Positions 7,548 through 63,215 of a DNA stretch of 64,000 nt are shown piece after piece. A program made the position numbers and the translations under genes. Source of the stretch: Eledone cirrhosa (Eukaryota); contig OZ024749.1 in NCBI GenBank assembly GCA_964016885.1, positions 33,108,001 to 33,172,000 of the forward strand, given 5' to 3'. The notes below the pieces were generated by a model. The model was given only the letters and a program-made list of their open reading frames with translations, did no database searches and was not told the origin of the DNA. How positions within the stretch are numbered: position 1 is the first letter of the stretch; each line of letters starts with the position of its first letter.

Positions 7548-8270
7548 TATCAATAATATTAATAAATGGAAACTATCTTTATAAAACCATAGATTAGTGT
7601 GGTTCGTTGATTACTCAATGAATACAATTTTACAATAGATTAGAAGCACTCAACAAAAAAGTTTTCCTGGAGTTTTTAATATTATTCAAAATATTAACAA
7701 ATGAAAAATATTCTCACAATCAAAATATATACTTTATTATATATATTTCAAAGGTACTGTGTTGTTTTTTCAGTACGTCCTCATCAGACAAAATATATGA
7801 TTTGATATATTGGTAGTACTGCCAATATTGGAATTGAATAATCAAGACCGTAGCGGTATGTCATATATCAAATCATATATTTTGTCTGATGAGGACGTAC
7901 TGAAAAAACAACACAGTACCTTTGAAATATATATAATAAAGTATATATTTTGATTATGAGAATATTTTTCACTTGTTAATATTTTGAATAATATTTATAA
8001 AACCATATTTATTTTATTATATATATTTCAAGGGTACCAAAATTTTGGAACGCTCTCATCAGATAAAATGCAAATGTTGTTTTATAAATAGTGACATATC
8101 CAAAAACAAGAACATTTTAAGTTTTGTTTGAATAGTGATGAGAGAGTACCAACATTTTGGTACCCTTCAAATATATATAATAAAATAAATATGGTTTTAT
8201 AAAGATAGCTTCCATTTATTAATATTATTGATATTATACACCAGAAGAATTTTGTAGAGTGCTTCGAATC
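7548..8270. mobile_element. Nested fold-back element with degenerate hammerhead motifs (Penelope-like remnant)
   Basis: Inverted arms about 7679-7810/7864-7994, 8000-8062/8136-8200 and 7550-7585/8195-8232. CTGATGA 7886-7892, stem gtactg/cagtac, GAAA 7924-7927, then tata-TA. Confidence 0.55.
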
Positions 8271-8593
8271 AGTTATAAATAAATTTGTTGAATATATAGG
8301 GAGTGTAACTTGAAGTTATTGTAGGTTCACCCGGGTGAGCACTCGATGTTTAGGTTCACGTCAGAGGCTAGGTGTAGAGCTAAGAAGATGGTAATATAAT
8401 AATAATAATACAAGGACGATTTTTGAAGCCTTCATAACGTTTATTGATTGGTGACGCGCGTTTCGCTATTGATCAGCTCAAGGTTCGATCTGACCCGACT
8501 ACATTCCAAAAGTAAACAGAAATAGCAAAGCAAAGGACACATTTGATTGAAGAAATATATTAGTTTAACGCTTGATATAATAGGAAAAGTGTT

Positions 8594-8626
8594 TTAACGT
8601 TTCGGACACTTGTCCTTCATCAGAAG
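8594..8626 (-). ncRNA. Minimal hammerhead ribozyme core
   Basis: The minus strand reads CTGATGA-a-ggac-aagt-gtcc-GAAA-cgt-TA, with palindromic AACGTT in stem III. Stem I is only about 2 bp. A decayed relative lies at 56010-56090. Confidence 0.55.
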
Positions 8627-9361
8627 GTAGAATGAGAAATAAAAGATGAAATAGAAAGATAGAGAGTGAGAAGAGGAAGGGACGGAAACATCTTCTTTAG
8701 AAAAACACTTGTATACACAGACACAGACACACAGACACACAGACGCAGAGACACACATACACACAGACACACTCAGACACACACACACACACACACACAC
8801 ACATACACACACACACACAGGCACACAGACACAGAGACAGACACACAGACACACAGACACACAGACACACAGACACACAGACACACACATACACACACAT
8901 ACACCGCCCCCCCCCCCCCATATATATATATATATATATATATATATATATATATATATCGCGGCACCGGATTATACCTATCTCTATACCCTCTCTGCAT
9001 CTCTCCCATGCATTGAGTACTCCGATGATTTATGGTCTCCTCGGTCTCAGCACCACAGACTCTCTCACTCTCTCACTCTCTCATTCTCTCTCTCTCTCTC
9101 TCTCTCTCTCTCTCTCTCTCTTTCTCTCTCTCTATCTCTCTCTCTATATATATATATGTATTCATTTTATTATAGAAATGAATATGCACATATATATATA
9201 TATATATATATATATATATATATATATATATGCATATTCATTTCTATAATAAAATGAATATATATATATATATATGTATATATATATATATATATATATA
9301 TATATATATATATATATATATATATATATATATATATATATATAAAGCTTCGTACAATCAA

Positions 9362-9457
9362 GACGTATCTGAGGACCTTGCGATTTTCAGAGTCAGGTTC
9401 GATCATCACATCGAACGTGCCTCGAGCTGGTCGCCAGAGAAACGATTGTAATATGTC
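9362..9457 (+). ncRNA. Type I hammerhead ribozyme with extended stem II
   Basis: gacgtat / CTGAGGA (9369-9375) / imperfect stem ccttgcga...tcgccaga / GAAA (9439-9442) / cgattg / TA / atatgtc. Stem I is 7 bp with one G-U. Flanked by (TA)n on both sides. Confidence 0.65.
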
Positions 9458-9539
9458 CAATAAATTCCATTCGTCGCAACACTGATTCTCTGTTTTTTCT
9501 GTGATATATATATATATATATATATATATATATATATAT

Positions 9540-59333: not shown

Positions 59334-59629
59334 ATTATATATGTATGTGTCTGTGTGTGTATATATATATATATATTTATTTATATGCATGCATATATAT
59401 ATATATGTATATATATATGTATATATATATGTATATATATGTATATATGCATGTATATAAATAAATATATATATATGTATATATATATGTATATATGCAT
59501 GTATATAAATAAATATATATATATGTATATATATGTATATATGCATGTATATAAATAAATATATATATATGTATATATATGTATATATGCATGCATATAA
59601 ATAAATATATATATATATGTATATGTAAA

Positions 59630-59930
59630 AGTAAAATTTCCGCTTGGTTGGTTGGTTCAACACACACAAAAACAAGATGGCGTAGGACAGAACAAAGGAG
59701 AGGCACAAAAACAAAGAAAAGAATCCCCAGTCACTGAAGAGGTCACAGAATGTGTGACGAAAGAACTTTCACAATATATAAACAATCATCTGGTTGTGGA
59801 ACCAACCAACCAACCAATCGGAAATTTATAAATTCCTAAATTTATAAATTTATTATAATAAATTGAAGTGAAAGCAACTGGTGCGTGTGTTTCTTATTGG
59901 TAACATGACCCTCCCAAAATATAACAATAT
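59630..59930 (+). mobile_element. Third, diverged copy of the 57-kb hammerhead element with a short 5' inversion
   Basis: 59670-59930 matches 57355-57615. CTGAAGA at 59734-40 with the 3' strand of stem I mutated. 59632-59657 is an inverted copy of about 59798-59829. Confidence 0.75.
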
Positions 59931-61645
59931 TTATATATATTTATATATATATGATGTATATTTATATATATATATATTCATATATATATATATATATATA
60001 TGTATGTATCTTTAACTTTGCCTTTCATCCTTACGGGGTCGATAAAATAAAGTACCAGTAATACACTGGTTAATTGGTGGCGTTGTGCCAAAAGTAGAAA
60101 CAATTATCAACATTACATGTGATGGTGATGATGTTAATGATAGTGATGAGTGTGATGGCGATGAGGAGTAGGAGGGTGGTGGAGGGGGTGGTGGTGGTGG
60201 TGATTACTTACATCAATAAATACTAAAAATATCTAGATTGAAATTTAAGCCTGATCATCAAGTAATGAGTATAAAATAAATTAAAACCACCACCACCACT
60301 ACCACCACCACCACCACCTACAACAATAACAACAGTAACAACAACAATGTCAGCAACAATAACAACAGCAACAACAATAACCATATGAATATCAATAACA
60401 ACAACTATAGTAACAACAATATCAATATAAAGAAATTACAAACAAGTTTAGTTAATGAAGCAGATTGAAGTATATAAATAGATATGTATGTATGTGTGTG
60501 TGTGTGTGTGTGTGTGTGTGTGTGTGTGTGTGTGTGTGTGTATGTGTGTATGTATGTGTGTATGTATATATGTATCTGTGTATGTGTGTATGTGTATGTG
60601 TATGTGTGTGTGAGTGTGTATGTATGTGTTTCTATGTATGCGTATTTGTTTGTATGCATGTATGCATGTGTGTATGTATGTATATGTGTGTGTGTGTGTG
60701 TGTGTGTGTGTGTGTGTGTGTGTGTGTGTGTATGTATGTATGTATGTATGTATGTATGTGTGTGTGTGTATGAATGTGTGTATGTATGTATGTATGTATG
60801 TATGTGTGTGTGTGTATGAATGTGTGTATGTATGTATGTATGTGTATGTGAGTGTGTGTGTATGTATGTATGCGTGTTTGTTTGTATGTATGTTTGTATG
60901 TATGTGTGCATGTGTGTATGTATGTATGTATGTATGTATGTGTGTGTGTGTATGAATGTGTGTATGTATGTATGTATGTATGTATGTATGTGTGTGTGTG
61001 TATGAATGTGTGTATGTATGTATGTATGTGTATGTGAGTGTGTGTGTATGTATGTATGCGTGTTTGTTTGTATGTATGTTTGTATGTATGTGTGCATGTG
61101 TGTATGTATGTATGTATGTATGTAGGTATGTATGTATGTATGTATGTTCTGGTTTTATTATTTTAGACTCTTTCGGTGTTGATTGGCAGTATCAAGTTTG
61201 GCGCATAGAGTTACGGCCCTTTCCATTCTGAATTCAATTCCTGCCGAGGTTAACTTTGCCTTTCATACTTACGGGGTCGATAAAATAAAGTACCAGTAAT
61301 CCACTGGGACAATTGCTGGCCTTGTGCCAAAAGTAGAAACAATTATTTTAGACTCTTTCATTGGAATTTAGACATCAACTGGGTAAGTATATATATAAGT
61401 GTGTGTGTGTGTGTGTGTGTGTGTGTGTGTGTGTGTGTGTGTGTGTCTGTGTCTGTGTGTGTGTCTGTGTGTGTGTGTGTGTGTGTGTCTGTGTCTGTGT
61501 ATGTGTGCAGGAATGTGTGGATCTGTATGTTTTGAGTAATATGTGTGTACGTGCATATGTTATTACATGCTGAATTTCTGAAATTTTACAGTTCCATTAA
61601 TAGACTGTATTTCCAATTTCCTAATTAGCTCCAACAATCCCAGCT

Positions 61646-62654
61646 ACAAATCTAAAGGGATATTCAGAGTGAAGTATCTGCGGATTCCTCATTAGTTCAG
61701 CACAAATCTAAAGGGATATTCAGAGTGAAGTATCTGCGGATTCCTCATTAGTTCAGCACAAATCTAAAGGGATATTCAGAGTGAAGTATCTGCGGATTCC
61801 TCATTAGTTCAGCACAAATCTAAAGGGATATTCAGAGTGAAGTATCTGCGGATTCCTCATTAGTTCAGCACAAATCTAAAGGGATATTCAGAGTGAAGTA
61901 TCTGCGGATTCCTCATTAGTTCAGCACAAATCTAAAGGGATATTCAGAGTGAAGTATCTGCGGATTCCTCATTAGTTCAGCACAAATCTAAAGGGATATT
62001 CAGAGTGAAGTATCTGCGGATTCCTCATTAGTTCAGCACAAATCTAAAGGGATATTCAGAGTGAAGTATCTGCGGATTCCTCATTAGTTCAGCACAAATC
62101 TAAAGGGATATTCAGAGTGAAGTATCTGCGGATTCCTCATTAGTTCAGCACAAATCTAAAGGGATATTCAGAGTGAAGTATCTGCGGATTCCTCATTAGT
62201 TCAGCACAAATCTAAAGGGATATTCAGAGTGAAGTATCTGCGGATTCCTCATTAGTTCAGCACAAATCTAAAGGGATATTCAGAGTGAAGTATCTGCGGA
62301 TTCCTCATTAGTTCAGCACAAATCTAAAGGGATATTCAGAGTGAAGTATCTGCGGATTCCTCATTAGTTCAGCACAAATCTAAAGGGATATTCAGAGTGA
62401 AGTATCTGCGGATTCCTCATTAGTTCAGCACAAATCTAAAGGGATATTCAGAGTGAAGTATCTGCGGATTCCTCATTAGTTCAGCACAAATCTAAAGGGA
62501 TATTCAGAGTGAAGTATCTGCGGATTCCTCATTAGTTCAGCACAAATCTAAAGGGATATTCAGAGTGAAGTATCTGCGGATTCCTCATTAGTTCAGCACA
62601 AATCTAAAGGGATATTCAGAGTGAAGTATCTGCGGATTCCTCATTAGTTCAGCA
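61646..62654. repeat. 56-bp tandem array, 18 apparently identical copies
   Basis: Unit acaaatctaaagggatattcagagtgaagtatctgcggattcctcattagttcagc. Confidence 0.98.
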
Positions 62655-62962
62655 TAAATGTTCTCCTTTTCACTAATCTTTAACATTTCATTGATATTGG
62701 CTTGGCACCTGATTTACACTACGGTGCATGCTTTTTTTTCTCTGTCCTACATCACTATGTCTGATCTGTTATGTTTGCATGTTATTGGGGTTTTGACTGG
62801 AACATTCCAACAGTACTCTTTCATATTATGTATGCATATGCCTTTCACATCAATGTAACTTTTAATATGTTCATTCTCAGAGCCATCCTTTCTATAGATT
62901 GCACTCTACAGTGTTTTGTCCACTACATAATGCAAAACAAATACAAAAACGAAGTATATATA

Positions 62963-63215
62963 TAGAAGTGGTTACACAACAGTTAGTTCACCATACTGAG
63001 AACAATTGTTTTACCTTAGCGGATCTTCAGCTCGTAATGGACATCGTTATACGGTTATTCCGTATAACCATGTCCATTACGAGCTGAAGATCCGGTAAGG
63101 TGAAACAATTGTTCTTGGTATGGTGAACTAACTGTTGTCTAACCACTTCTACCTAACTCGTCCCATGGACTGAGTGCTCTACCACAACGGATATTACCTT
63201 CCAGTGTTCTACCAC
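62963..63215 (+). mobile_element. Fold-back element with a minimal hammerhead
   Basis: Arms 62963-63054 and 63060-63151 with loop ttatt. ccattacgag / CTGAAGA (63084-90) / tcc-ggtaa-ggt / GAAA (63102-05) / caattg / TT / cttggtatgg. Confidence 0.7.

Follow-up and report, generated by a model that had tools for sequence, protein, structure and literature searches.

The window analysed here, 64,000 nt of the genome of Eledone cirrhosa (assembly GCA_964016885.1, contig OZ024749.1, positions 33,108,001 to 33,172,000 of the forward strand), contains short repetitive elements that carry hammerhead ribozyme motifs and belong to several mutually unrelated families. An earlier note, made from the sequence alone, had listed such elements at 7548 (here family A), 8594 (E), 9362 (F), 9540 and 33093 (I), 21908 and 58283 (H), 37917 (B), 39654 (C), 56943 and 59630 (G) and 62963 (D). 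All of them are present at these positions, and the diversity of families that the note claimed is borne out. We consider it probable that the elements derive from Penelope-like elements (PLEs) and are insertions of the 3' repeat that bears the hammerhead, the pseudo-long terminal repeat (pLTR), truncated at the 5' end and often arranged head-to-head, likely produced by an enzyme that cuts (TA)n and copies RNA from both cut ends, using two fixed internal starts.

The left part of the window opens with a head-to-head insertion of family A (7590..7995) that has both arms and its centre at 7836. Its minus arm is tailed (core 7787, tail hairpin 7646-7673) and its plus arm is tail-less (core 7886, predicted cut after 7935). 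This insertion is nested in the left arm of a head-to-head copy of A2, a relative of A (7991..8330, right boundary approximate, left end at 7551-7589), in which the minus-strand core 8062 is intact and both the plus-arm core and the tail hairpin are decayed. Around the nested insertion an AT-rich word of about 11-14 nt is duplicated at 7581-7591 and 7995-8006, partly as microhomology. Single arms of family E (8508..8700, minus strand, boundaries approximate, core 8623 with a stem I that is weak in this copy) and family F (9345..9503, plus strand) follow; the latter is flanked on both sides by (TA)n runs and has a core at 9369, a branched stem II and a predicted cut after 9450. Family E lacks inverted arms, with no inverted partner among 40 genome matches, and has no tail hairpin. 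The family I head-to-head stub at 9541..9728 retains only the 3' half of a hammerhead of the U3-A8 variant and a tail hairpin at 9587-9612 on the minus strand. Further along, a single family H arm (21909..22040, minus strand, tail hairpin 21949-21969) has both catalytic boxes (22035) and lacks the 5' strand of stem I. A fragment related to the 3' part of family C, absent from the earlier list, lies at 22789..22902 on the plus strand and terminates at (TA)n.

The remaining elements begin with a head-to-head stub of a second family I subfamily (33088..33281, centre 33142, tail hairpin 33205-33230). Family B occupies 37910..38790 on the plus strand and consists of a 73-nt inverted end and 1.2 copies of a 686-nt non-coding unit; its core at 38304 has a stable stem III and a predicted cut after 38375, and it contains a hairpin at 38676-38716 as well as an imperfect one at 38113-38132. 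The family C stub (39656..39908, head-to-head) has its centre at 39745, its core at 39749 and its tail hairpin at 39849-39871. Two more elements missing from the earlier list are a tail-only fragment of family I between (TA)n runs (41206..41302, plus strand, hairpin 41231-41256) and a further hammerhead element at 55475..55718 (plus strand, core 55518, predicted cut after 55546), of which locus L048 holds another copy. Family G forms a head-to-head insertion at 56885..57614, with cores at 57140(-) and 57419(+) and arms that are 99-100% identical. The 136-nt filler between these arms (57220-57355) is a 99% identical direct copy of 56149-56284, about 1 kb upstream, and resembles, judged by its sequence, a templated insertion made in repair. 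A family H stub (58282..58448, head-to-head, tail hairpin 58386-58406) turns within its core, with the centre at 58324, and is followed by a plus-strand family G arm (59625..59928) with a short inverted 5' piece and a core at 59734 that has a stem I mismatch. The last element is a head-to-head stub of family D (62963..63216; centre 63057, core 63084, predicted cut after 63113, tail hairpin 63156-63177), which appears to be the 3' end of a Hydra-clade element encoding a reverse transcriptase (RT) and an endonuclease.

The cores are genuine hammerhead ribozyme motifs, and their self-cleavage is predicted. Complete three-stem type-I cores lie at 7787(-), 7886(+), 8062(-), 9369(+), 38304(+), 57140(-), 57419(+) and 63084(+). 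With the type-I descriptor, 30 local dinucleotide shuffles gave 0.13 cores on average and never more than 1, compared with these eight. A wider descriptor returned nine cores, and its 40 shuffles averaged 0.4 and peaked at 3; in this shuffled control, which the earlier note had suggested, the cores stand far above the shuffled level. The wider descriptor adds core 55518, which the note had not listed, loses 9369 and also picks up a U3-A8 match at 18790 that is probably due to chance. The note's description of CTGANGA...GAAA cores with pairing stems holds for the complete set. The descriptor did not recover 8623, 22035, 39749, 59734 and 63030 whole; inspected by eye, these copies have a changed catalytic base or a stem I that is interrupted or truncated. 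Its suggested 'partial cores' at 9540/33093 and 21908/58283 turned out to be 3' halves of real hammerheads, the whole form of which occurs elsewhere in the genome. Ten natural copies drawn from families A, A2 and M show both conservation and covariation: position 7 is the one core position that varies, 90.9% of cells are paired compared with 34-61% when the partners are slid, and 8 of 22 pairs have changed on both sides. The rows of this alignment are related to each other, and the pairing figures are to be read as support and not as a probability. In a search against Rfam, the hammerhead models of which the earlier note had suggested as a check, no family reached its gathering score within the window; the E-value list, of which the best 150 of 817 rows were looked at, was dominated by microsatellite matches.

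The abundance of these motifs extends to the whole genome. In a sample of 110 evenly spaced 10-kb stretches from along the chromosomes (1.1 Mb of a 3.0-Gb genome), the type-I descriptor found 128 cores, compared with 3 and 2 in two shuffles. This extrapolates to about 3.4x10^5 cores genome-wide (bootstrap range 89-173 per sample, or 2.4-4.6x10^5), unevenly spread in that 59 of the 110 stretches contain none and 50 of the 128 cores belong to four tandem-forming families (J, K, L, N). The density of roughly one core per 6 kb given earlier is real but not special to the window: 37% of resampled 60-kb sets attain or exceed it, the idea of an unusually dense window was rejected, and its core density is the genome average. 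Searches with individual families yielded 1,200-5,100 first-look candidates each in six of seven; the query with the family G arm found nothing genome-wide and failed to recover its own locus, probably owing to the high frequency of its words, and other loci were used for this family. Published hammerhead counts are lower, with about 9,000 in Xenopus and 4,000 in coelacanth (PMC4209133) and 126,247 in axolotl (PMC7229834), but they were obtained with other descriptors and are not strictly comparable. The number in E. cirrhosa is high, yet extrapolated from a sample. A literature search, mostly outside subscription journals, returned nothing on cephalopod hammerhead numbers, and the main text of an Octopus vulgaris repeat paper (PMC13282606) contains the word 'hammerhead' 0 times.

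Longer copies connect several families to coding elements, in line with the Penelope-like origin that the earlier note had proposed. By their sequence, families D, A, I and G can be assigned to the 3' ends of GIY-YIG PLEs, chiefly of the Hydra clade. The fullest case is family D. Upstream of it, copies L211-L218 (the protein search gave 68,622 first-look candidates, of which 150 were scored) contain open reading frames (ORFs) that reach 628 aa and combine RT motifs with an endonuclease at the C-terminus; long copies of the kind that the earlier note had proposed to look for do occur. By eye, the D ORFs show RWR in place of RWK, DKT and a CxCX5C linker, lack CCHH, and have CxxC and CxH around a conserved E and N; look-alikes found with a language model carry RVT_1, HTH_animal and GIY-YIG. 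This motif set matches the Hydra clade, and an assignment to Neptune was rejected as the CX2-5CxxC linker and CCHH are both missing. Upstream of family G, L145 and L255 contain a GIY-YIG ORF (PF01541, E=1e-4), which in L145 shows by eye a CX4CxxC linker and a C-terminal CCHH endonuclease, which makes Neptune or Nematis a candidate clade for G. Endonuclease sequence lies 0.7-1.4 kb upstream of family I in L071 and L277, where the whole ribozyme has the U3-A8 core, and an endonuclease remnant lies about 1.4 kb upstream of family A in L119/L330. For G, I and A the endonuclease end alone was seen; whole RT-endonuclease ORFs were seen in D. Since D, A, I and G run into endonuclease sequence, their copies in the window would be truncated ends of coding elements.

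Family B differs in kind. Its 686-nt non-coding unit, with one type-I hammerhead each, forms tandems of up to about 3.5 units, and no PLE protein match was found in the four loci tested (L003, L009, L013, L014); no RNA holder is listed for it, which is uninformative on expression. The term 'non-autonomous', applied earlier to the whole collection, therefore fits family B, the only one shown from its DNA to be a non-coding tandem unit of the retrozyme type, but not D, G, I and A. Tandem non-coding hammerhead arrays also occur in the genome sample, with units of 311 nt (L256, L286, L253), 482 nt (L292), 467 nt (L247) and 528 nt (L257).

The ends of the elements follow a common plan. Most families have two fixed 3' ends, A and B, 60-125 nt apart. 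Seven families supplied 115 head-to-head pairs, and 91 of the 103 that were classifiable combine one end A with one end B. In a systematic sample (TA)n was found at 152 of 183 ends, compared with 10% of random positions and a baseline of 2.8% at non-microsatellite positions, which substantiates the insertion preference inferred earlier. Within the window, 8594 has no contact with (TA)n, and the right end of 62963 adjoins (CA)n. Local inverted repeats are centred at 7836, 8098, 9675, 33142, 39745, 57279, 58324 and 63057, all at listed elements; 8594, 9362 and 21908 are single arms. The statement that the elements fold at or near the ribozyme applies loosely: some elements turn inside the core and others up to about 60 nt ahead of it, and 37917 does so about 320 nt ahead.

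Where the copies begin is a separate matter. Among 12-130 arms per family, only 0-1 start within 3 nt of the predicted cut, and we rejected the rule that copies start at the cut site; in this count very short arms may escape BLAST, and matches of A and A2 overlap. One B array (L003) does start at the predicted cut, at query base 466. The 5' ends cluster instead at family-specific positions: 75 of 76 in family I lie 31-49 nt before the cut, 50 of 52 in family H within 51 nt of it, and 29 of 43 in family A 113-126 nt before it, 13 of them sharing one base, with the pile-ups of A and F placed 20-60 nt ahead of the ribozyme. A TATA-like word lies about 30 nt upstream of the pile-up in A, H and I. 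These patterns, from a 5'-end walk over the families other than C and G, suggest that the pile-ups are transcription starts. In L071 and L277, the predicted promoter and transcript start of family I lie inside hammerhead stem II, so that RNA made from it would be without the first catalytic box.

Behind end A, the first fixed 3' end, tails compared side by side share a hairpin with a 4-bp outer stem, a 1-2-nt bulge on the 3' side and a 3-6-bp inner stem, whose sequence varies between families while the pairing is kept. It starts 5-10 nt behind end A in ten families, and a scan found it at one main position each in A (4/34 copies), A2 (11/38), C (19/32), C2 (5/16), D (37/91), F (10/35), H (7/40), I (22/53), L (5/11) and M (3/16), counts that include many copies ending at end A and thus tail-less; 79 of 4,730 background windows matched. 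K and N gave a single match each, at other positions, and the family B hairpin was seen by folding, the scan not having covered its tail. Of five endonuclease-linked loci outside the set used for the definition, two show the hairpin by eye, a third shows it with a mismatch, and the other two stop short of the tail. Among published elements (PMC8557442 supplement), the sea-cucumber sequences Hydra-1_Ajap and Hydra-2_Ajap contain it twice and once, respectively, and Hydra-1_Crog has it in imperfect forms. A second hairpin lies by eye behind end B in B, L and F, and L222, a read-through copy of G, has one of the same shape just behind end B, though G has none behind end A.

We regard it as an evenly balanced question whether Hydra-clade PLEs across phyla share this bulged hairpin as a signal, to which a telomerase-like RT would bind and start copying 5-10 nt upstream. 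Under this proposal a second copy would set the opposite end of some families, and the non-coding retrozymes would keep the hairpin to borrow the enzyme. Several points tell against it. The definition was drawn up after seeing these families, the offsets to end A come from one scan without a per-family null, folding z-scores are mixed (-3.3 to +0.3), and a loose form of the hairpin is only 2.7-4 times as frequent as in shuffles (109 vs 41 and 26). The scan found none in E (0/33), G (0/33), I2, J and O, and the second hairpin is missing from D, which does not bear out a rule of twin hairpins in every family. No report of the hairpin was found in the literature searched. If the proposal is true, a genome with about 3x10^5 hammerhead motifs would constitute a large natural record of hairpin-guided start.

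Considering these observations together, we propose the following hypothetical mechanism, in which (i) a PLE enzyme would cut (TA)n DNA and each cut strand would prime one cDNA, from end A or end B; (ii) the reverse transcriptase would bind the tail hairpin, which would set the start at end A; (iii) most templates would be short RNAs from a promoter inside the pLTR; and (iv) both cDNAs would run off near the transcript start and be joined there head-to-head. Stubs beginning at the supposed transcript start are without the TATA-like box and as such would be dead ends. The role of the ribozyme would be to trim tandem or read-through RNA, usually without defining the copied 5' end, and family B would be a non-coding tandem unit using the same machinery in trans. 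A Poseidon protein was found in vitro to cut and extend both strands, with two starts bounding the tail (PMC11167929), and the anatomy seen here, one-tailed pairs with (TA)n flanks, fits two-strand priming as measured for that protein. The roles of hairpin and promoter are inferred.

Other routes could yield similar insertions, and the main rival for the head-to-head junction is self-primed fold-back, in which a single cDNA would fold at a palindrome and serve as its own template, and the endonuclease would later trim one arm, leaving a one-sided tail. Such a process has been proposed for palindromic junctions (PMC3846280) and for the tail (PMC8557442), several junctions in the window are near-perfect palindromes and the arms of the G insertion are almost identical. 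However, the D tail sits on the long or the short arm alike, in vitro measurements on another PLE gave two fixed RT starts (PMC11167929) and many junctions contain unpaired spacers or fillers such as 57220-57355, and we consider fold-back unlikely. It is also conceivable, if doubtful, that most families are non-autonomous, SINE- (short interspersed element-) or retrozyme-like, and spread from short masters, possibly via circular RNA. The 686-nt tandems of family B, with PLE protein matches in 0 of 4 loci, the tandems of J, K, L and N (unit length 311-528 nt), which supply 50 of the 128 sampled cores, and the lack of an ORF link in C, E, F and H all point in this direction, whereas the continuation of D, G, I and A into endonuclease sequence does not. 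Moreover, Hydra-type 3' untranslated regions (UTRs) in this genome reach 0.7-1.4 kb, so a missing ORF near a stub tells little. A third route, in which self-cleavage by the ribozyme generates the 5' end of the RNA and copying ends and reverses direction at the cut, would explain the L003 array and the H and I stubs that turn inside the ribozyme. It appears very improbable given the 0-1 arms per family that start at the cut, the position of the A and F pile-ups and the finding that cleavage is dispensable in vitro for another PLE (PMC11167929). Chance motifs, DNA-transposon miniatures (MITEs) or fold-back artefacts of long-read assembly, finally, are already refuted as a general account and almost certainly wrong: the unmet Rfam gathering scores and the simple repeat that makes up 39% of the window stand against the shuffles, the invariant core with eight pairs changed on both sides across ten copies, the fixed asymmetry of ends A and B, the ORF links and the thousands of first-look candidates per family. 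The MITE candidate was rejected because the ends are asymmetric and lead into PLE ORFs; no sign of the DNA-transposon origin that the earlier note had named as refuting its view was found.

Truncated pLTR insertion by two-strand priming must itself be weighed against a number of observations. Pfam and PDB sequence searches named no domain in the D ORFs, the endonuclease link of family A comes from one copy (E 1e-9 to 7e-5), and no ORF could be connected to families C, E, F and H, the search for these and A2 having reached 0.2-1.6 kb of shared upstream sequence (for E only within its own loci); longer F copies share at least 1.6 kb upstream without a PLE protein match. As to the 5' ends, those of family D are scattered from -20 to -399, TATA-like words are frequent in this AT-rich DNA, the walk used few, diverged references, which makes some stops (H -24, -34) subfamily mismatches, and length-biasing queries were used to pick the copies of A, F and D. 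An extra G before the supposed start, as would derive from a cap, was not accepted as evidence, as the inverted arm can supply it.

The window also contains repeats outside these families. A further (TA)n-ended family without a standard core is present at 40661-41122 (minus strand, tail hairpin 40725-40752) and 33304-33594; by eye the family resembles a tandem array in L108/L112. Two copies of what is apparently the 3' half of another hammerhead family lie on the minus strand at 8417-8500 and 54077-54155. A very abundant repeat of about 190 nt, which we take to be SINE-like, occurs in both orientations and in local tandems at 5389-5546, 13340-13452, 22583-22775, 24570-25254, 30097-30282, 39264-39463, 41749-41938, 46651-46849, 50292-51121, 54687-55013, 59161-59342 and 61178-61350. 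Tandem arrays span 19986-21878 (98 nt), 16568-17187 (105 nt), 61641-62659 (56 nt) and 11705-13211 (46/98 nt), the units of the first three being 98-99% identical. At 22076-22222, 41485-41548 and 43306-43416 a central (TA)n is enclosed by a short inverted repeat with MITE-like ends, and one such repeat abuts the family H arm at 22040.

Much of this picture is known biology, namely pLTR hammerheads, inverted truncated copies, tails, PLE-derived retrozymes and the targeting of (TA)n by Hydra elements. For the Hydra clade, both its hammerheads and its (TA)n preference have been published (Craig et al. 2021, PMC8557442). With the Hydra clade as described there, our families share the D ORF motifs, a canonical hammerhead, (TA)n targets, the inverted 5'-truncated copy and the one-sided tail. 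In contrast, the tails are 60-125 nt long here and 30-40 there, the 3' UTRs of several families are 0.7-1.4 kb long, copies are very numerous, and the accessible text on the Hydra clade makes no mention of the tail hairpin or the 5' pile-ups. Published hammerheads (PMC4209133) likewise have the type I fold, an extra base after position 9, a palindromic stem III and the U3-A8 variant, and occur singly and as opposite-strand pairs 100-700 bp apart, with many families per genome; the 4-5-bp stems III of H and I set these two apart. Inverted pLTRs of Adineta Penelope (PMC3846280) resemble our insertions in their head-to-head arms, optional tail and TATA and initiator (Inr)-like words in the pLTR, but copy number is low there and self-priming was proposed as the cause. 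Poseidon PAc (Frangieh et al. 2024, PMC11167929) shares a pair of 3' ends, targets rich in AT, a stem-loop close to the starts and a copied end not set by cleavage; it belongs to another clade, its stem-loop is called AC-rich, and no cross-family motif is reported in the accessible text.

How PLEs choose the RNA start and build one-tailed head-to-head insertions is stated to be open (PMC8557442, PMC11167929), and the shared tail hairpin, the less ordinary part of our findings, is a testable cis-signal: a structure common to unrelated families, published Hydra sequences and a non-coding partner lends itself to a simple mutational test. Families B, J, K, L and N are like metazoan non-LTR retrozymes (PMC7229834; bioRxiv 10.64898/2026.07.22.740005) in being non-coding tandems with one type-I hammerhead per unit, found beside autonomous PLEs. 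B and L differ from these in having PLE-type fixed ends, inverted arms and the tail hairpin of coding Hydra elements, a signal that, if true, would account for retrozyme mobilisation.

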